43,639 bases of DNA from a virus (Duplodnaviria > Heunggongvirae > Uroviricota > Caudoviricetes), in IMG/VR virus record IMGVR_UViG_2617270952_000006; one strand, given 5' to 3'. Numbering within the stretch: position 1 is the stretch's first letter; every line of letters starts with the position of its first letter. A model generated the notes under the pieces. The model had not been told where the DNA came from and did not search any database. It saw only the letters and a list, made by a program, of their open reading frames with translations. Made by a program: the position numbers and the translations under genes. Of this stretch, positions 2,954 to 18,170 are shown in pieces.

Positions 2954-3028
2954 GTCCTCTTAGTTAAATGGATATAACGAGCCCCTCCTAAGGGCTAATT
3001 GCAGGTTCGATTCCTGCAGGGGACACCA
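2954..3028 (+). tRNA. argW: tRNA-Arg (anticodon CCU), prophage integration target
   Basis: gtcctct...agggga acceptor pairing, anticodon loop ctCCTaa, T arm gcaggttcgattcctgc, encoded CCA; 75 nt. Confidence 0.95.
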
Positions 3029-3153: not shown

Positions 3154-3190
3154 GTGGATAAAATAATTTTACCCACCGGATTTTTACCCA
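3145..3190. repeat. Three copies of TTTTACCC (one inverted) over the intS promoter and start
   Basis: gggtaaaaa at 3145-3153 (inverted), ttttaccca at 3167-3175 and 3182-3190. Candidate integrase/RDF binding sites. Confidence 0.4.
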
Positions 3191-4347
3191 TGCTCACCGT
3201 TAAGCAGATTGAAGCAGCAAAGCCGAAAGAAAAACCATACCGCCTACTCGATGGTAATGGCCTGTACCTTTATGTCCCTGTGTCAGGGAAAAAGGTATGG
3301 CAGCTTCGCTACAAGATTGACGGTAAGGAGAAAATCCTGACCGTAGGAAAATATCCGCTAATGACTTTGCAGGAGGCAAGAGATAAAGCATGGACCGCGA
3401 GGAAAGACATCTCGGTTGGCATCGATCCGGTAAAAGCGAAAAAGGCTTCGTCTAACAACAATTCCTTTAGTGCAATTTACAAGGAATGGTACGAACACAA
3501 GAAGCAAGTCTGGTCAGTAGGGTATGCGACTGAACTTGCAAAAATGTTTGATGACGACATTTTACCCATCATCGGCGGTCTTGAGATTCAGGATATTGAG
3601 CCGATGCAACTGCTGGAAGTAATCCGCAGATTTGAAGATCGCGGTGCAATGGAGCGAGCCAACAAAGCCCGCAGAAGATGCGGCGAGGTTTTCCGTTACG
3701 CTATTGTCACTGGTAGGGCTAAATATAACCCGGCACCTGACCTTGCAGACGCCATGAAAGGATACCGCAAGAAGAACTTCCCGTTTCTTCCTGCAGACCA
3801 GATCCCTGCATTCAACAAAGCACTGGCAACATTTTCAGGAAGCATCGTATCGCTCATTGCGACCAAAGTTTTACGCTACACAGCCCTAAGAACGAAAGAG
3901 CTTCGTTCCATGCAATGGAAGAACGTCGATTTTGAAAACAGGATTATCACTATCGACGCCAGTGTGATGAAGGGCCGCAAGATTCATGTTGTTCCTATGT
4001 CAGACCAGGTGGTTGAACTTCTCACTACGCTAAGCTCCATCACTAAACCAGTATCAGAGTTTGTTTTTGCCGGGCGCAACGATAAGAAGAAGCCAATCTG
4101 CGAGAACGCGGTATTGCTTGTTATCAAACAAATCGGCTATGAGGGTCTGGAAAGCGGTCACGGATTCAGGCATGAATTCAGCACAATTATGAACGAGCAC
4201 GAATGGCCTGCTGACGCTATTGAAGTGCAACTGGCACATGCCAACGGCGGATCTGTGCGTGGAATTTACAACCATGCTCAGTATCTCGATAAGCGCAGAG
4301 AAATGATGCAGTGGTGGGCGGACTGGCTTGATGAAAAGGGGGAGTGA
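3190..4347 (+). CDS. intS: Tyrosine integrase, IntS (KplE1/CPS-53, Sf6, HK620 type)
   Basis: 385 aa from MLTVKQIEAAKPKEKPYRLLDGNGLYLYV; C-terminal HGFRHEF...HANGGSVRGIYNHAQY catalytic motifs; adjacent to argW as in K-12. The GTG at 3154 in the ORF track is probably not the start. Confidence 0.93.
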   Translation: MLTVKQIEAAKPKEKPYRLLDGNGLYLYVPVSGKKVWQLRYKIDGKEKILTVGKYPLMTLQEARDKAWTARKDISVGIDPVKAKKASSNNNSFSAIYKEWYEHKKQVWSVGYATELAKMFDDDILPIIGGLEIQDIEPMQLLEVIRRFEDRGAMERANKARRRCGEVFRYAIVTGRAKYNPAPDLADAMKGYRKKNFPFLPADQIPAFNKALATFSGSIVSLIATKVLRYTALRTKELRSMQWKNVDFENRIITIDASVMKGRKIHVVPMSDQVVELLTTLSSITKPVSEFVFAGRNDKKKPICENAVLLVIKQIGYEGLESGHGFRHEFSTIMNEHEWPADAIEVQLAHANGGSVRGIYNHAQYLDKRREMMQWWADWLDEKGE

Positions 4348-4438: not shown

Positions 4439-6442
4439 TCAAATCAGCCCATAAATAACATTATGCAAATGAAGAGAGCCTGCTTCACCGGAAACATCAA
4501 AATCAATCCTAACTTTGCTTGCTCCAGGAGGAACAATATCTATTAATGCGTAGAAATTCCATGTGGAGCCTGATGGAATTGTAAATGTTGCTTTTCCCTG
4601 AACAGAGTTCCCTTCTTTATCAAAAAACTCAATACCAGAGATTGTTGTCACTTGATTCTTAGCCCAAAAACCTAACTGGAAATATCGTCCTGGTGAGCAG
4701 TCTGAGCACTCCTGATAAAATTTTGCAGATGCTCCTATAGATGGTATTGCTACATACAAAGACCTGGAAAACATAATATCATTTGGAACATCAGAATCCG
4801 TTCCTGCTGTAACAACACCTGAACCAGTTTGTTGAAGGCTCCAGTTAGAGTAGTTTAAAAACTGTCCACTTCCATTTGATAGCGAATTTATGTATGGACT
4901 AACTATGTTCCCTTTATCCCACTGAGTTGTTATAAATCCAGATCGTGGATAGCATCCATATGACATTATTTTTTTACTATTACCTCCAACTACCTGTCTA
5001 GTTGCTGATCCTGTCGCCAAATCCATTTGGTCAAATAAAGGCAATGAGCAATTTGTTAATGAAAGTACTGAATCATCATTTACAACAAACGGAACTGAAC
5101 TATATCCAGAGGGAGTAAGTAGCGTTGTATCTTTAATGCTTATTCTTGTGCTTCCAGATGCAGAGAACGCCACAAAGCTTTGACCTGGCTGAAACTCAAT
5201 ATTTCCACTTGAGTAAACAACGGTTGCGTTATCTTCAATAAAAACAGTAGAATCAAAATAACCTTCTTTCTTACCTGCTGGCATAGAGCAACAGTTAAAA
5301 ATAAATTGACCATTTCTAATTGTCAATGGACCTCCATTATCAACAACCCAACAATTATTAAATGTCATTACCTCGCCTGAGTTTGATGGAGAATTAAATA
5401 TAATTGTGTTGTTTAGACATCTTGATATTGTTACTTTGTCAAATAAAATTCTATATGAATTATCAAGAAACTCAATTCCAGCAGATGATATGAATGAAGA
5501 ATTACTTATTCTTAACTCTGATAATTCACCAGTGCCAATACCTCCAAGTAAAATCTTTTTAGATCCTAGCATCTTAAAAGATATGCCATCTAAAATTGAT
5601 GTTGCATTTATTTCATCCCTATTATCATAAGAAATATTAGAGTTACTTAACCTAATTGCATAATCACCTGATATCCCATTAATCTCAGTTAAAACGCATT
5701 TATTCGATCCTCTTAACCCACCTTTCGCGAAATCAATATCAATTAAAGACGAGAATTCTCCACTACATGGAACAACGCAATCATAACCTAGAGAGTTTAT
5801 TTTATTAATAAATAATGCAATATCCCCAGCGCCGCTGTAACCAGCGTCATATACAGAAAACTCAAGGCTTGGGTTTATTCTCTTCCAATTTACACCGTTA
5901 CCTTCTAAAACCATTACGTTATCAACTGCAATTGACTTGTCTACAGCTACAACAAACCCACCACCAAGTTCGAGTCCGGATACGTATGATTTTAAATATA
6001 ATTTATCAGATATCGACATTCCTTGTATATCTTTAAGGGAGTTAGCGCTCTCTACCATTCCAATGTATTTGTATCCAATATTACTTGATAGTTTTATAGA
6101 TAACTGATCAGGATCATACTTCAGCACATTAGGAAAATAGAACTGCTGCGCACCGTACGCATCATAAACAGCCATAGAATGGCCTTGCACGGTTACGAAT
6201 TTGGCAATCTGTCCGTTATATACCGGGTAACCAGCAGCGTTAATGATGATTGGTTGCGATACAGGAACGTGAGAACCGTCTTCGTTCTCTACATAAACCT
6301 GAATCTGGTTTTCAGGATTTACCGGGTCAGTGTCAATTTTTCCGATATAAATTTTGCCATTGGCATTTGCTTTAAACGAGCGAGCTAAAGTAAATAACTG
6401 ACTTGGTTGTGAAACAACAACGTTGTATAATTGTTCTGGCAT
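4439..6442 (-). CDS. Tailspike: conserved P22/Sf6-type head-binding N domain plus divergent receptor-binding C-terminal part
   Basis: [107 protein letters not shown] matches the P22-family N domain. Start taken at ATG 6442 (MPEQLY); an upstream ATG at 6451 is possible. Confidence 0.9.
6403..6431 (+). promoter_or_regulatory. Candidate sigma70 promoter for the HNH-AP2 gene, antisense within the first tailspike codons
   Basis: TTGGTT (6403-6408), 17 bp, perfect TATAAT (6426-6431), about 35 nt upstream of ATG 6465. Confidence 0.35.
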
Positions 6443-6464
6443 AATAAACATTCCGGAGAAAATA

Positions 6465-6965
6465 ATGAGTAAGAGACGTCACGAGGTAGTAACTCGGGAG
6501 CGCCTTATGGAGGTTCTCGATTACAATAAAGAAACAGGAATTTTCACTTGGAAAAAGAAATTAAGCGCCAGAGGTGCTGTTGGGAAAGTTGCTGGCACAA
6601 TTTCTTATGGATATAACGCAATTAATATTGATGGCGTAAGATATTTTGCACATAGACTTGCCTGGCTGTATGTATATGGCGAATGGCCCAAACAAGAGAT
6701 TGACCACATTGATAGAAACAGAAGAAATAACGCAATCTCAAACCTTAGGGATGTCAGCAGAGTCGTAAATGCATTAAATGTCGGACCTCGAAATAGCAAT
6801 GCTGGAATCAAGGGGGTAACTTTCTGTCAAGCCAGAAATCAATGGCAAGCTCAGATAAATGTCTCAGGTAAAAACATAACCCTTGGGAGATTCAACACCA
6901 TTGATGAAGCGGCTATAGCTTATAAGGCAGCAAACATGGTTGCTGACCATCTGTTGAGTAGGTAA
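6465..6965 (+). CDS. Free-standing HNH homing endonuclease with C-terminal AP2 DNA-binding domain
   Basis: HNH motif [18 protein letters not shown]; AP2-like [44 protein letters not shown]; SD ggag 6 nt before the ATG; AT-rich. Confidence 0.85.
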
Positions 6966-6987
6966 TGTCTGTCATTTAATTTGCTCC
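6961..6987 (-). pseudogene. Orphaned original tailspike translation start (SD plus codons MTDIT)
   Basis: Minus strand reads GGAGcaaattaaATGACAGACATTACC = M T D I T, the canonical P22-family tailspike N terminus. It then runs into the antisense HNH gene and stops after 20 codons (6913). Confidence 0.7.
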
Positions 6988-7032
6988 AGATGCAAGGAAT
7001 CGCCGCAGCATGGCTACGGTGAATTTTGGGCA

Positions 7033-7057
7033 TAAAAAAACCCAGCCGAAGCTGGGT
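7033..7057 (-). terminator. Intrinsic terminator downstream of ant
   Basis: Minus strand acccagc-ttcg-gctgggt followed by ttttttt. Confidence 0.8.
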
Positions 7058-7075
7058 CGTTGCGTTGGTTATCTG

Positions 7076-8011
7076 TCAGTAGTTATGTACTGAAGGAGGT
7101 AATTCTTTATTCTTAAGTCTCATCCATGCGGAAAGATTCGTTGGTCCGTCTGGCTCATTAATATCAACATCTCGTGTGCGATTGATTAAAACGTCTCTCG
7201 CCATTCCGATAACATACGAGAACTCATGACCGTAGTCGTAGCATCTGCCTGAATAGTTCGATTGAATTTGTTTTAGCGCCGGATACAGTTCGCGGAATAA
7301 TGCCTGTGAGCGGTTGGCATAATCCCATAACCATACAAGGCTGTTTACTTCTTTTGCAGAAAGCTCGTTGGTTTTCTTCTCTTGTTTGCCAATGAACTCA
7401 CCTTCAAGTGGAACTCGAGCTGCAAGTGATAGTGCTTCGGTAAACTGCTCCTCACTGATTTCTTTGTATGAACATCCAAAATGGGATTTCAGTGACGACC
7501 ACATGGTGATCATCGCCTTAGCCTGTTTTTCCTTTGGCAGAGACTGACCGCGACTCATGACGAGTTGTTTAATGGCTTCCTGCTGTTCAGTGGTGATTTT
7601 ACCCGGCAACGCCTTTTTAGCTTTGCGCGGGTTAACTACATGGCCTTTAGTCCAGTAGTCATGCAGCACGCTAAAGCATTCCTCCTGGTACTGAATCAGT
7701 TTATCGCGGATGTCAGCACGAACTTTCTCAGGGTTGATGCTGAACAGCCATCCATTTAACTTCTTCAAAGGAAGGCAGAGTAGCTTACGAAGCTTTCCAT
7801 CAGCAGCAACCATATTCATATGAATACATTTGAACTTATCTAGTTGTTTCATAAGTTTTTGTTGCTGAGTACCCCAGCTCATTCCGAGGTTTTCAACGAT
7901 TGGCTTCATCGCAACATATGCAACTCCGGCAGCCATGGCGGTGATAATTTGCTGACCGTTGAATGGTACGTAAGAGGTGTTCACTGCTTCTAAAATTGCT
8001 ATACTATTCAT
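7076..8011 (-). CDS. ant: Antirepressor Ant (P22 immI)
   Basis: [26 protein letters not shown]... recognised as the P22 Ant N terminus; SD ggag upstream of ATG 8011. The longer ORF to 8077 is probably not used. Confidence 0.9.
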
Positions 8012-8073
8012 GTTGGTTTTTCTCCACGGATTTACTGACAACCGAAGCCCTGACTGTTCCCGCAGTTGGGGCT

Positions 8074-8256
8074 TCACTGTTTTATGTTCACATCTAACAT
8101 TGTTTTTCTAGAATTTAACTCTTTCCCCATCGCTTCAACGCAAAGAGATACACAACTACTACAGATAAATATCTCTGCTTTAGCGCGAATCAACATTGCA
8201 CATTCATGCTGAGGCTTTCCGCAGAAGGAGCACTTAAAGCCATCTTCTTTATTCAT
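8074..8256 (-). CDS. Small ClpX-type C4 zinc-finger (ZBD-like) protein between arc and ant
   Basis: 60 aa; [31 protein letters not shown] is collinear with the ClpX N-terminal zinc-binding domain, with 4 Zn cysteines. Its ATG overlaps the arc stop (ATGA). Confidence 0.75.
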
Positions 8257-14740: not shown

Positions 14741-15588
14741 TACTGCTCCGCGATTATCTTGATGGTTGTGGCAGTAAACGCCGCACCATTCGACTGAATG
14801 GTTAACGTGCTGCCATTTGTGGCAAGAAAGCCGTCTTTATCCACGCTGAAGAACGTAGCTAACAGGATGTTGTCGGTTGTTGTCGCCGCATTACGACTGC
14901 TGACCAACGTGTCAGGAACAGAGCCGGAAAAGGTTAGCTGCATTGACCTGTTGGCGGTTCCGCTGGGCCACGTCCCGACGATCGACAGCTTGAAGAACAA
15001 GGTTTTGTTCTCGTTGAACACAACCATCTTGTTGTTAACGGTGTCGAAGAATGGTGCCAACGTGCCGGATGACGGCGTGAGCGTTTTCAGCAGGCTAACA
15101 AGGTTGGTCGGCGCTGTCGGGATGGTTACAGATACGCCAGAGTAAACAACCTCTGACTTCTTGCGAGTAGTGGCATACTCCAGAGCATCGATGCGCGTTT
15201 CATGGTCTGAAAGCGTATTTTGAATGGCGACAACTTCATCCGTCAGGTAATCAATATCGTTTTCTGCTGTCGTTAATCGTGAATCAAGGCCGACTATCGC
15301 CGCTTCTGCGTTAGTGATCCTTGTTTCGTGGTCCTGAATCTTAGTTTCAGCTGATGCCAGTCGAATTTCGTGATCGACAAGAATCACATCCTGCTCATCG
15401 TTCCTGACTTGTGCGTCATAAGCGCCCTGTCCGGCCTCGTTGGCTTTGTTAGCCACGTTACCAACATCAGTGCCCTGTGCGATAACGTAAAGCAGATACG
15501 ACTGCGAGAAGATATTGCGTGGAAGGACTGATGTGTCGAGCCGTGTAGCCTGAATGATTACCGGCACATTGAGATTCGAATCCGCCAT
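14740..15588 (-). CDS. Tail needle (P22 gp26 family) with Sf6-type C-terminal knob
   Basis: 282 aa; N-terminal [43 protein letters not shown], heptad coiled coil, beta-rich C-terminal domain. Confidence 0.88.
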
Positions 15589-17006
15589 TACTCAATCCTT
15601 ATCTGAGCGCCAGACAGAGTGACAGGTGACTTCGTGATAACGCGCAATTTGAAGCCGACATTTTTCCTGATGCGTCCGACACGCTTCCACAAAACGCGTT
15701 TGTCGTAAACGAACGGTTCATTCTGCTCAATCATCTGCTCACGACCGTAATTGATGCCGTCAGTGGTTGCAGAGAGGAACAGGCGGTCAGCATACTGCGC
15801 AACACCAGTCGATGATTCCACCTCCAGATCAAAGCATCTGGCGTTATCCGCTTTGAACAACGGAGTAAACAGCAGGTGTTCCTGCTGCTTGTCGTACTGG
15901 CTGCTGATATCGAACTGTAATTTCCCGGTCACGGATTCCAGCTTATCGCCGCACGTTATCTGATTGCCTTCGTAAATGAAGTCGATAGCGCGGTACACAT
16001 CGTCATACAGTCCTGTTTTCAGTACGCACCATTGCGGACCATTGGCGCTTGAAGATGCGTCGTACACGAGAACATGGCGCGGAAGGTGGATAATCAGCAA
16101 CTCATGAGCATCAAATCGCAGCGATTCCATCACACCATCAGCCAGCTCATCAGCAGTGTAGGAGCGGAGTATTTTCTCAATGCTCGCGCTGGCGATTGGT
16201 GACACCTGACCGGAGCCGATAATGTATACAGACGGCGCACCCGTTGCCGGATTGCTGATAAACGCATAGGAATCAGCAAACGGCGTTTTGCAGTAAGTTC
16301 CGGCGATGCCTTTTTGCACCATCAGTGATGGCTGTGCGACATACAAAGCAGCACCAACGGTGGTTGCGCCAGTCAGGGAGAAATATTCAATCGTCGATGA
16401 ACCAAAGCAGACGATGAAGTCTCGCCATGTGCCGATACCGATGATGCCGTCCGGCTGCGACTCGGCACGATATTGTGCGCTGTAACGGTCAGGATGCGAT
16501 TCGTCTTCAAGGTCAGTGATAAACCATGAATCAGTGCCGTCTTTTGACCACGCATAACGCCCACGCAAGCGCGTAATGTCACGAACCGAACCTAACTCAT
16601 ACTGAGTGAATCCGCTATCTGCAGGCCAGTTTGAGACGGTTTTAACCGTTCCATCATAGCGATACTCGACCAGTTGACCATTAAAGCCTACAGCCTGAGA
16701 TGTTCGACCATGCGCCATTGATACGCGACCACTTCCGGCAACATCACCGACCTCGCTTTCGCCCTTATACAGCTTGCCACCACACACGCGATAAACAGCA
16801 TTCTGCGCCATGTTGTACTCGACGCCTCGCGATACGCCGTTCACATCAGAACGTTTGGCAATGCCCGGGAATGAGCGAAGATATCCCGATGAATTCAACA
16901 CCTCCTTGGGCGTAGCTAAAAGATTGACTGGAAGTTGGTCTATATAATCAGCATTAACCGAACTTTTCCCCAAGCCCTTCATTAGTGGTAGTTGTTGTAT
17001 TGCCAT
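15588..17006 (-). CDS. Tail accessory / portal-channel plug protein, P22 gp10 homologue
   Basis: [14 protein letters not shown]... 472 aa, near-collinear with P22 gp10 as I remember it. The first 53 nt overlap the 3' end of the upstream HNH gene. Confidence 0.9.
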
Positions 17007-17538
17007 TGGAATCAACCTTTATATGAACCCAGTTAGCATCACGCTTTAGCCTACTTGCCCAGGTCTTAGATATCCCGTACTTAGCCGCAATTACTGACAA
17101 GCTTTCTTTTGATGACTTGATTGCAAGAACATCGTCATCACTCAACTTGTGTTTTGGGTGCTTGGTTCCGAAAAACTTGATTGGTTTCTTTAATCCGGTG
17201 GCGTATGCATGTTTTATGTTTTCGCTTTGAGTGCACCACTCAAGATTATTGACGTTATTATTGAGTGGATTGCCATCAATATGATTTACCTGAGGCTTGT
17301 TTTCAGGATTTGGCAGGAATGTCATTGCAACGATTCGATGGGCAAAAGTCCATTTTGCTCCGATATTATAAAGCACCCTTCCCTGATTGATTTTAGGCTT
17401 TAACCAGCGCCCCTTTCTGAGTTGCGTGCTGCCATGCGCAGCCTTAACAACACGTGAGTGAGAATATACCCTGCCATCTTCTGTTACGGCATAAACACCT
17501 TCAAATCCAGGTATATCTTTAGCATTCTCAGAAAGCAT
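16954..17538 (-). CDS. Free-standing HNH homing endonuclease (NUMOD4 - HNH - C-terminal HTH)
   Basis: IPGFEGVYAVTEDGRVYS (NUMOD4-like), VNHIDGNPLNNNVNNLEWCTQSEN (HNH), LSVIAAKYGISKTWASRLKR (HTH); strong SD aaggag. Confidence 0.88.
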   Translation of the reverse strand: MLSENAKDIPGFEGVYAVTEDGRVYSHSRVVKAAHGSTQLRKGRWLKPKINQGRVLYNIGAKWTFAHRIVAMTFLPNPENKPQVNHIDGNPLNNNVNNLEWCTQSENIKHAYATGLKKPIKFFGTKHPKHKLSDDDVLAIKSSKESLSVIAAKYGISKTWASRLKRDANWVHIKVDSNGNTTTTTNEGLGEKFG

Positions 17539-17687: not shown

Positions 17688-18170
17688 CTATGCGTTTGGG
17701 ATATCGCCATCAATCAGAGGGAGATCGCGTGGATAATATCGGTCAGATGTGAACACGTCATATTTATTACCCTGTCCTACAGGAAAATCTCCACGTCGTC
17801 GTATTGAAGGAACAACCAGAGTGTCGGTCATCAAGGCATCATATGAGCGTTGGGCGTTACTGAGAACTTGCGGAGTTGGTTCAAGGCTGTAATCAGATAG
17901 CATTCTCAGCAATAACTGATAGCCTACAGCGTGTTTGTATTTTCTTGGAAGACCTGACTCATCATCTGGTAATGGCTGCTCATCTCCAGTTGCGAAAGCG
18001 TAACCAATGTCGCCGGGGTTAATCATCCACTCGGACATCATATCTTCCAGATCAATTACACCATCTTCAATTGATTGCGGCTCAACATCAGTCAGCGATG
18101 CATTAGAAGCAATAGCAAACTTACGAAGCGCAAAAAGGACGATCTCACCCTTTGTCAGTACTGTTGCCAT
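17688..18170 (-). CDS. Head-completion / tail adaptor protein, P22 gp4 homologue
   Basis: 160 aa, position between the coat region and gp10 as in P22/Sf6. Confidence 0.8.
   Translation of the reverse strand: MATVLTKGEIVLFALRKFAIASNASLTDVEPQSIEDGVIDLEDMMSEWMINPGDIGYAFATGDEQPLPDDESGLPRKYKHAVGYQLLLRMLSDYSLEPTPQVLSNAQRSYDALMTDTLVVPSIRRRGDFPVGQGNKYDVFTSDRYYPRDLPLIDGDIPNA

Follow-up and report, generated by a model that had tools for sequence, protein, structure and literature searches.

Free-standing homing endonuclease genes (HEGs) are known from T-even phages, in which SegB, SegF, SegG, and MobE carry out "intronless homing" (PMC2988022, PMC2790892, PMC2330249). The free-standing enzymes of T4 often cut hundreds of bp away, and some HEGs split the gene in which they reside, giving rise to "genes in pieces", for instance mobE in nrdA of Aeh1 and mobA in gene 39/60 of T4 (PMC2988022). 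Endonucleases that combine HNH and AP2 domains occur in phages, cyanobacteria, and protists (Magnani et al., 2004, as cited in PMC10448857), and the "IPA-HNH" genes of ICP1 have been considered under the theme of boundaries of genetic exchange between phages (PMC10448857). A search of the literature retrieved no description of a HEG, or of an HNH-AP2 site specificity, for the tailspike start of P22-like phages.

The window, i.e., the whole stretch of 43,639 nucleotides analyzed here (IMG/VR record IMGVR_UViG_2617270952_000006), is a P22-like prophage at the tRNA-Arg gene argW. An original prediction, made from the letters of this stretch alone, had described a homing gene at the start of the tailspike gene, and all of its sequence statements hold at the positions that it gave; the "other" homing event to which it alluded also has its counterpart in the window, namely a NUMOD4+HNH_3 gene at 16954..17538. 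The region 6365..6961 is likely to be a free-standing HNH-AP2 homing-endonuclease cassette at the 5' end of the tailspike gene. The nuclease gene, here named HEG1, adjoins the immI region. The features of the locus are as follows.

4439..6442, minus strand: tailspike gene, 667 aa; Head_binding domain in residues 1-113 (Pfam PF09008, E=2e-64).
6140..6364, minus strand: probable co-converted flank in the lineage of the window, comprising the rest of the head-binding domain, ~225 nt.
6365..6424, minus strand: divergent 60-nt patch, tailspike codons 7-26, always linked to HEG1.
6365..6961, no strand assigned: HEG1-linked cassette, 597 bp, with the nuclease gene, the new start, and 26 replaced codons.
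6403..6431, plus strand: candidate sigma-70 promoter of HEG1 (TTGGTT at 6403..6408, 17 nt, TATAAT at 6426..6431).
6425..6442, minus strand: working tailspike start, codons 1-6 (MPEQLY), a mutated copy of an MxDSII/MTDSINA-type start.
6455..6458, plus strand: HEG1 Shine-Dalgarno (SD) sequence GGAG, inside the near-palindrome CTCCGGAA.
6465..6965, plus strand: HEG1, a 166-aa HNH_3 + AP2 endonuclease gene (assigned by Pfam), antisense to the tailspike gene.
6913..6975, minus strand: remnant ORF of 20 codons and a stop, the orphaned start read into the antisense of the nuclease gene (direct read).
6962..6987, minus strand: orphaned tailspike start, GGAG-N8-ATGACAGACATTAC, with the SD GGAG at 6987..6984, an 8-nt spacer, the ATG at 6975..6973, and codons 2-5 (MTDIT).
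7039..7058, minus strand: intrinsic terminator separating ant from the tailspike region, found by a scan and conserved in the alignment with HEG-free relatives.
7076..8011, minus strand: ant (antirepressor), the upstream neighbor of the tailspike region (Pfam P22_AR_N + P22_AR_C).

The minus-strand letters of 6987..6961, read directly, are GGAGCAAATTAAATGACAGACATTACC, and the orphaned ATG lies 533 nt upstream of the ATG at 6442. The proposal that an SD and an MTDIT start persist about 530 bp upstream on the same strand was thus correct, and this start is shared with the tailspike starts of HEG-free phages: its first 14 nt are common to HEG-free alleles, it matches identically the uninterrupted tailspike starts of N7, 611R6, and Survcare253, and in the comparison of the window with HEG-free phages the identity stops exactly after ATGACAGACATTAC. 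The match is not due to chance: together with the ~190 nt preceding it, the orphaned start has 94-99% identity to the region between ant and the tailspike gene in more than 100 phage records. The N-terminus MTDITANVVVS, quoted in the original prediction, is found in the database proteins P0002 and P0033. The remnant ORF consists of five tailspike codons and 15 antisense codons followed by the stop TAG, in agreement with the predicted end after 20 codons, and the HEG1 stop codon (TAA, 6963..6965) was rightly placed inside the remnant, within the orphaned start, where it forms the antisense of codons 4-5. The strong upstream SD and ATG are a scar, and the true tailspike start is the weak downstream ATG.

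Empty sites allow a direct comparison. A near-isogenic prophage of E. coli Survcare253 occupies the same argW site without the nuclease gene; its tailspike gene is 99.7% identical from window position 6139 down to 4301, and an uninterrupted MTDITANVVVSMPSQ... start is found where the window has the orphaned start. More than 200 further empty sites read through MTDITANVVVS without a break. HEG1 is carried by 15 of the 5426 complete E. coli genomes, ~1355 of which match a query for the ant-tailspike junction. The gene therefore shows a presence/absence polymorphism at one fixed site among close relatives, and its insertion antisense at the tailspike 5' end, as originally claimed, is established by the direct sequence read together with the empty-site comparison. 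HEG-free phages with the MPEQLY start, which would have spoken against this claim, did not turn up among the complete E. coli genomes, where 15 of 15 with that start carry the nuclease gene.

The same arrangement could in principle represent a self-splicing intron with an antisense ORF, located between the orphaned start and NVVVS, such that the mature tailspike would begin with MTDIT. This reading is highly improbable. The orphaned start does retain a strong SD and an ATG, and six residues stand ahead of NVVVS in either reading (MPEQLY or MTDIT start); however, the antisense ORF takes up 501 of the ~537 bases, which leaves no space for a ribozyme core, the orphaned stub varies between 11 and 21 nt among lineages, and the right side of each lineage has its own in-frame ATG and a natural-looking N-terminus. 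Moreover, the loci of two further HNH-AP2 genes (HEG2 and HEG3, described below) have complete second starts with an SD. An Rfam search of 6200..7200 (E<=10) returned chance-level matches only and no group I or group II intron family. With no Rfam intron and an antisense ORF that fills the insert, HEG1 does not belong to the intron-encoded homing endonucleases.

The HEG1 protein has an HNH_3 domain (Pfam, E=2e-16), in which the DH...N...NL motif residues D80, H81, N89, N93, and L94 are invariant in 42 homologs; by these sequence features it is a recognized HEG-family nuclease with an intact catalytic motif. The AP2 match (E=3.6e-6) reaches 27.6 bits, under the curated cut-off of 33.3 bits, and relatives of HEG1 carry a precomputed PF00847 match. 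A PDB search with the protein sequence gave no match. The best structural match of its AlphaFold model (pLDDT 86.8) is I-HmuI (PDB 1u3e; 96 columns, probability 1.0, 25% identity), and from residue ~114 on the model matches plant AP2 domains (7et5, 1gcc; rmsd 1.5 A, probability 1.0), so that HEG1 is predicted to have a C-terminal AP2 DNA-binding domain. I-HmuI, the closest solved fold, is a nickase, which is a point against homing. Of the 25 loci checked, 24 have an intact HEG1 ORF. The gene evolves under purifying selection, with pN of 0.12-0.18 vs. pS of 0.68-0.89 and dN/dS below 0.1 where computable. Automatic annotation sometimes shortens the nuclease gene.

HEG1 belongs to neither an intron nor an intein and has its own translation signals. 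Its GGAG lies in the near-palindrome CTCCGGAA, and the new tailspike start has its degenerate SD, GGA, on the opposite strand of that element; the sequence CTCCGG(A/G)A is kept in all HEG1 relatives. The calculated SD:anti-SD duplex is -6.6 kcal/mol for HEG1 vs. -3.5 kcal/mol for the working tailspike start; the latter is also weaker than the orphaned start (-5.6 kcal/mol), as had been anticipated. The candidate promoter TTGGTT-17-TATAAT proposed for HEG1 holds in part: the sequence is present and its -10 element is conserved, whereas the -35 element is weak, not conserved, and negative in a scan. The -10 element, which overlies tailspike codons 4-6, was judged by conservation across relatives; TATAAT or TATGAT is found equally far from the HEG start in the window and at three related loci (L146, L149, and L151), while the tailspike frame over it differs between those loci (QLY vs. 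SII). A consensus promoter scan of 6200..7200 called none, since the -35 element matches at only three of six positions. Such conservation suggests that HEG1 probably has its own promoter. The main texts of the papers on phage Kapi1, the transcriptome paper included, do not mention the HNH gene.

HEG1 runs against the late operon with a promoter-like -10 element and a strong SD of its own. These features would also suit a nuclease kept mainly for the benefit of the prophage or its host: expressed in the lysogen from its own promoter, it would cut the tailspike gene of any HEG-free P22-like phage that superinfects (exclusion or marker exclusion), and homing would be a by-product. The place of HEG1 next to the immI region and the long-term purifying selection on it are compatible with such a role, and its target would occur in most competing P22-like phages. 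We consider this explanation quite unlikely, since only ~1% of the loci carry HEG1, a frequency more in keeping with a selfish element than with a defense of general use.

The present tailspike ORF indeed starts at 6442, with ATG CCA GAA CAA TTA TAC AAC GTT; this ATG is also annotated by PGAP and by the Kapi1 authors, and 22 nt (6443..6464) separate it from the HEG1 ATG, as counted before. Read from another in-frame ATG, at 6451, the protein would begin with MFIMPEQLY. The working start shares ATGnCAGA and CAATTATAC with the starts beside HEG1 relatives and with the GF43/L142 allele. MPEQLY derives by mutation from the tailspike start of another allele class; it travels with the nuclease gene and is no foreign DNA. 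With the tailspike N-terminus as a protein query, the matches were confined to short partial proteins, and MPEQLY starts cannot be counted from them; the natural allele classes are still visible.

The codons behind this start are also peculiar to HEG1 loci. The 60-nt patch is fixed in all 24 HEG1 loci and is 46-69% identical to HEG-free loci; among 100 of the latter, the patch alleles reach a frequency of at most 10% at 24 of the 26 marker sites, and of 0.26 and 0.61 at the remaining two. Beyond the patch there is no fixed difference from HEG-free loci. An identity of 46-69% leaves no homology for a crossover inside the patch, and thus its complete linkage needs no selection. For the same reason, the linkage does not serve to locate the cut. 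The idea that the patch was recoded de novo to confer immunity was likewise discarded, because this allele class occurs naturally without a HEG in Salmonella (P0022/L143), E. coli (GF43/L010), and an IMG/VR contig (L142). The first six tailspike codons had been proposed to be replaced; they are, but the replacement extends over 26 codons within the 597-bp linked cassette. Similarly, the idea of a simple insertion is right in placing a homing gene at the tailspike start and is better expressed as the arrival of a nuclease gene together with a donor start, with the recipient start left behind. The substitute start alters tailspike residues 2-6, which are not part of the ordered head-binding fold. 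In several solved structures of the P22 tailspike, the chain begins one residue before NVVVS, and residues 1-5 are therefore dispensable for the ordered fold.

The cassette is nearly uniform (mean pairwise identity 99.5%, minimum 98.8%, 24 loci), while the adjoining head-binding DNA of the same loci is only 86-96% identical; the right boundary of the linkage is sharp, and the HEG1 loci with a complete tailspike gene represent 20 tailspike classes. To the left, the cassette occurs in three upstream contexts with no linked haplotype, and the junction is identical in 27 of 27 loci that have the HEG1 3' end, across all three contexts. One context has a different orphaned start, ATGTCAGATATCAC (MSDIT), and there the HEG1 stop becomes TGA; the junction is exact even with a left homology of ~26 nt that includes five mismatches. 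This pattern suggests that the cassette spread recently. Comparison of the window with the near-isogenic empty-site allele gives 19 mismatches in 6140..6341 and then six in the next 1839 nt, consistent with a probable conversion tract of ~820 nt (6140..6961). Flanking host sequence thus appears to have been co-converted with HEG1, as judged from population data rather than from a cross. Phage Kapi1, which forms plaques and uses the O-antigen as its receptor, has the same cassette (99.3% identity over a 901-bp query that spans it; nuclease protein Kapi1_066 100% identical), and a phage with the cassette is hence viable.

The conserved flanks could also let the cassette spread by ordinary homologous recombination, with no part played by the nuclease, a possibility that counts against homing. 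In its full form, this alternative regards the cassette as a passive "moron" that was acquired once by illegitimate recombination, whose nuclease no longer drives mobility, and which spreads only via its flanks, which rank among the most conserved and most recombinogenic parts of P22-like genomes. Both flanks are in fact highly conserved in hundreds of phages, and absent homology alone can explain the linkage of the patch. Nevertheless, a passive element is unlikely, given the intact ORF in nearly all loci checked and strong purifying selection across genera, the presence of three divergent HNH-AP2 genes at the same junction, the exactness of that junction where the left homology is short and mismatched, and a cassette much more uniform than its flanks.

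Under the preferred explanation of a homing cassette, the element comprises the nuclease gene, oriented against the late operon, and a substitute start made of a degenerate SD, an ATG, and 26 codons. HEG1 would cut or nick HEG-free tailspike alleles of the MTDITA/MSDITA type in their first codons, and a HEG-carrying phage or prophage present in that cell would serve as the template for repair, so that the recipient acquires the cassette along with a head-binding stretch of variable length. The recipient SD and first five codons would remain beyond the nuclease gene as a scar, supplying the HEG1 stop codon, and the tailspike would then be translated from the new, weaker start. The carrier itself is presumably protected from cutting, since it has only a truncated and a heavily substituted copy of the site.

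Relatives of HEG1 with 78-84% amino acid identity occupy the same place with the same architecture in Salmonella, Citrobacter, Mixta, and an E. coli-like metagenome lineage; among phage records, the closest homologs besides that of Kapi1 are less than 60% identical. At the identical junction in E. coli, we identified the HNH-AP2 genes HEG2 (15 genomes) and HEG3 (seven genomes), which are 35-42% identical and each have their own substitute tailspike start. We know of no member of this HNH-AP2 clade that has been tested. We tentatively raise a broader possibility, itself doubtful, that the first codons of P22-like tailspike genes are a long-lived homing hot spot, where at least three HNH-AP2 lineages would have diverged in situ, each with its own cleavage-resistant start in an arms race of targets and specificities, and where breaks would significantly drive the exchange of tailspike (host-range) modules among temperate phages of Enterobacterales.

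The tailspike determines which O-antigen, and hence which host, is open to infection by a P22-like phage, and is the most mosaic gene of these phages. If HEG1 cuts at the conserved tailspike start, the break would have to be repaired with a co-resident relative as template, which would promote recombination at the edge of the host-range module; the occurrence of the same cassette on 20 tailspike classes is consistent with such a role in module exchange and is no proof of it. Kapi1, a cultivable phage with the cassette, offers an experimental system for the homing prediction.

The cassette is a clear and fairly ordinary case of a homing gene, of a kind already known. As in the HNH-AP2 endonucleases described so far, an N-terminal HNH nuclease is followed by a C-terminal AP2 domain, and, like those treated in PMC10448857, the gene is found at a boundary of phage genetic exchange. 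I-HmuI of Bacillus phage SPO1 is likewise an HNH nuclease with an extended DNA-binding architecture; unlike HEG1, it is intron-encoded, nicks one strand, and is without an AP2 domain. The HEGs of genes in pieces resemble HEG1 in being free-standing within a coding region that is undivided in relatives, and in leaving the host gene functional. In the window, however, the upstream piece amounts to a 5-codon stub without function; the entire protein comes from the downstream piece, with a replacement N-terminus, and two polypeptides need not be reassembled. The locus falls outside this class, since the downstream ORF by itself matches the Head_binding profile over its full length (1-113). The T-even HEGs share several features with HEG1: they lie outside introns and inteins, at a fixed place at which close relatives have or lack the gene, flanking markers are co-converted, and the carrier differs from the recipient beside the gene. 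In contrast to them, HEG1 resides in a temperate P22-like prophage, is antisense to its own operon, and lies within the coding 5' end, where it replaces the SD, the ATG, and 26 codons of the tailspike gene and leaves a 5-codon stub behind.

The window holds a P22-like (Lederbergvirus-type) prophage, with the following features around the tailspike gene:

2954..3028, host genes and tRNA-Arg(CCT)
3154..4347, integrase gene, after tRNA-Arg
4439..6442 (-), tailspike gene with the full Head_binding domain
6465..6965 (+), HNH-AP2 endonuclease gene (HEG1), upstream of the tailspike gene in the tailspike orientation
7058..7039, intrinsic terminator between HEG1 and ant
antirepressor gene ant, upstream of the terminator in the tailspike orientation

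The closest phage record is Escherichia phage vB_EcoP_Kapi1, with 99.3% identity across 6250..7150 and a tailspike that differs from the window's in its C-terminal part. A second homing-endonuclease-like gene (16954..17538 (-), 194 aa, NUMOD4 + HNH_3) is placed between the gp4-type gene (P22_Tail-4, 17688..18170) and the gp10-type gene (Phage_stabilise, 15588..17006), whose start it overlaps; it has a 96% identical counterpart in Salmonella phage UPF_BP1 and is missing in Kapi1, N7, Sf6, and most relatives.

The sequence statements of the original prediction were all correct on direct reading. An orphaned tailspike start, composed of an SD and the MTDIT codons, is present at 6987..6961 (-) (GGAGCAAATTAAATGACAGACATTACC); its reading frame runs into the antisense strand of the HNH gene and stops after 20 codons, and the HNH stop codon (TAA, 6963..6965) falls within these codons. 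The HNH ATG (6465) and the working tailspike ATG (6442, MPEQLY) are separated by 22 nt, and the proposed promoter TTGGTT-17-TATAAT lies at 6403..6431. The N terminus MTDITANVVVS was found as the P22-type tailspike start in database proteins, and the suggested comparison with HEG-free phages gave an alignment in which N7, EC.P3, and 611R6 are identical to the window through ATGACAGACATTAC, with inserted DNA beyond. On the evidence of the sequence, an intron is ruled out. A second in-frame ATG, located three codons upstream of the annotated start (6449..6451 (-), giving MFIMPEQLY) and also kept in locus L146, is unlikely to be used, since GGA abuts it and leaves no spacing to any SD-like sequence.

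The extent of the insert was assessed by a linkage comparison of 24 loci with HEG1 and 100 loci lacking it, drawn from IMG/VR and from E. coli genomes. The earlier claim that the first six tailspike codons were replaced holds as to replacement but not as to extent: a HEG-linked haplotype is fixed in all 24 loci for exactly 60 nt past codon 6 (the patch, 6424..6365, tailspike codons 7-26). At 24 of the 26 patch marker sites the HEG-linked allele reaches at most 10% among HEG-free loci, and at the other two 0.26 and 0.61. No difference between the two sets is fixed beyond the patch, and no linked haplotype was found within 120 nt leftward; this pattern delimits a cassette of 597 bp (6365..6961). 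Complete linkage of the patch requires no selection, because it offers too little internal homology for crossover. Pairwise identity of the cassette averages 99.5% (minimum 98.8%), against only 86-96% for the adjoining head-binding DNA in those loci. A complete tailspike is present in 21 loci, which represent 20 classes by length and C-terminus. The cassette occurs in three upstream contexts, namely ant-terminator, an Arc/Mnt-type gene, and a gp16-type gene; the Arc/Mnt-type context has ATGTCAGATATCAC (MSDIT) as its orphaned start and TGA as the HNH stop, and about 100 uninterrupted MSDITA alleles are known there.

Three loci show the cassette decaying or rearranged: a premature stop in the HEG1 gene of E. 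coli EC06 (L009, 2525..2983), annotated as a pseudogene; replacement of the HEG1 3' end by unrelated DNA beside an integrase in 30COLEC (L007, 2459..2911); and an IS1 within the tailspike patch region of MLI104K1 (L011, ~2470). PGAP shortens HEG1 to 459 nt in L005 and L006 by placing the start at an internal Met (...LMEVL...), and the sequence there equals that of loci annotated with the 501-nt ORF.

Thirteen complete E. coli genomes share the receptor-binding part of the window's tailspike at an identity of at least 99.5%, and none of them belongs to the HEG-carrying set. In one of these, Survcare253, the same tRNA-Arg site is occupied by a prophage that has ant, the same tailspike, and an uninterrupted tailspike start (MTDITANVVVSMPSQLFTMARSFKAVANGK). 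The window differs from it by 2 mismatches in the left flank (6962..7177) and, on the right side, by the 60-nt patch and a further stretch, 6140..6341, with 19 mismatches; just 6 occur over the 1839 nt beyond it. This pattern reads as a putative conversion tract of ~820 nt (6140..6961) within an otherwise near-identical gene.

The patch is 46-69% identical to common E. coli alleles, mostly with synonymous differences, and belongs to a natural tailspike allele class that also occurs without a HEG, in a Salmonella contig (P0022/L143, start MPDITP) and, with the start MTDSINA, in E. coli GF43 (L010, ~2481) and IMG/VR locus L142 (~9090). The L010 and L142 patches are 95% identical to the patch that is otherwise confined to HEG1 loci; these alleles may represent either the ancestral form of the tailspike portion of the cassette or a target that is resistant by nature. 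The six new codons are not foreign, as ATGCCAGAA-CAATTATAC-AAC aligns with ATGTCAGATTCAATTATACCAAAT of the Salmonella relative and ATGACAGATTCAATAAATGCCAAT of GF43, small indels shifting the frame over CAATTATA. The insert thus ends on the right in a complete, mutated tailspike 5' region travelling with HEG1, and the left-hand stub is the remainder of the recipient's own start.

HEG1 (166 aa) matches HNH_3 in Pfam (E=2e-16), with a sub-threshold AP2 match; its AlphaFold model (pLDDT 86.8) is most similar to I-HmuI and next to plant AP2 domains (1.5 A), and a DH…N…NL motif is invariant across 42 homologues. Relatives with 78-84% protein identity were found in an E. coli-like metagenome lineage, Salmonella, Citrobacter, and Mixta, and Serratia is also among the protein matches listed. 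In all four lineages looked up, the gene lies antisense directly upstream of the Head_binding tailspike gene of a P22-like prophage. Each has a full SD, ATG, and 11-21-nt tailspike stub, then the nuclease gene with its stop in the stub antisense, and beyond it CTCCGG(A/G)A, an interval of 9-12 nt, and a complete substitute start for the tailspike (MPEQSY, MSDSIIP, MTDSIIA, or MTDNITA). Synonymous sites are saturated between lineages (pS 0.68-0.89) and pN is 0.12-0.18, which shows purifying selection on the protein. Four lineages keep TATAAT (TATGAT in one of them) ~27-30 nt before the nuclease ATG despite differing tailspike reading frames across it, which argues for selection on the DNA motif.

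Two further antisense HNH-AP2 genes at the identical junction were met during the empty-site count:

L053 ~7470-8100 and L225 (oriented) ~920-1540, HEG2
L270 3011..3499 (E. coli WP4-S18-ESBL-08) and L172, HEG3

HEG2 (HNH_3+AP2) has two candidate in-frame starts, the shorter reading giving 169 aa, and shares 42% identity with HEG1 across the core. It directly follows an orphaned MSDIT/MTDIT start and precedes a complete SD and MTDSINA tailspike start; HEG3 (HNH-AP2-like, 162 aa) precedes a strongly divergent one. The three proteins are mutually 35-42% identical, and all end in Arg-stop at the same junction bases (…T AGG|TAA or TGA; ...ATTAC|CTA... with the orphaned start), as compared in the window (6961..6965), L053, L172, and L270. 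Among 5426 complete E. coli genomes, HEG1 was counted in 15, HEG2 in 15, and HEG3 in 7. Unlike HEG1, HEG2, and HEG3, the HEG1 relatives in other genera have their junction 11-21 nt past the orphaned ATG; the common junction may reflect either shared descent or cut position. Passive spread of the cassette, without nuclease action, is an unlikely explanation, as it fits poorly with an intact, selected HEG1 ORF, with an exact junction in contexts having almost no left homology, and with three nuclease lineages at one site. Tentatively, the tailspike start might be a homing hot spot of HNH-AP2 lineages that drives tailspike module exchange.

Kapi1 carries the same cassette with a 100% identical nuclease protein and forms plaques using O-antigen as its receptor; thus, a tailspike translated from the new start is functional. 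In solved structures, P22 tailspike chains (1lkt_A, 8eb7_0, 5gai_Y) start one residue before NVVVS, and therefore residues 1-5 are outside the ordered domain. The predicted weakness of the new SD was borne out by computed anti-SD pairing of -3.5 kcal/mol, versus -5.6 for the orphaned SD and -6.6 for the nuclease SD; the surroundings of the new start are unstructured. If the -10 element is used, the nuclease mRNA leader (~6438..6464) would be complementary to the tailspike ribosome-binding region, and transcripts reading through late in infection would pair as antisense RNA with the entire nuclease mRNA. A role of the nuclease in exclusion in the lysogen, compatible with everything observed, is in our judgment quite improbable.

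Neither the Kapi1 papers nor the rest of the searchable literature yielded a description of the HEG1 cassette. HEG1 belongs to the HNH-AP2 class, and the cassette probably works in the manner of T-even phage free-standing endonucleases ('intronless homing'). It is unusual in being carried by a temperate phage, in lying antisense within an essential late gene, at its 5' end, and in supplying a replacement gene start while taking its stop codon from the scar.
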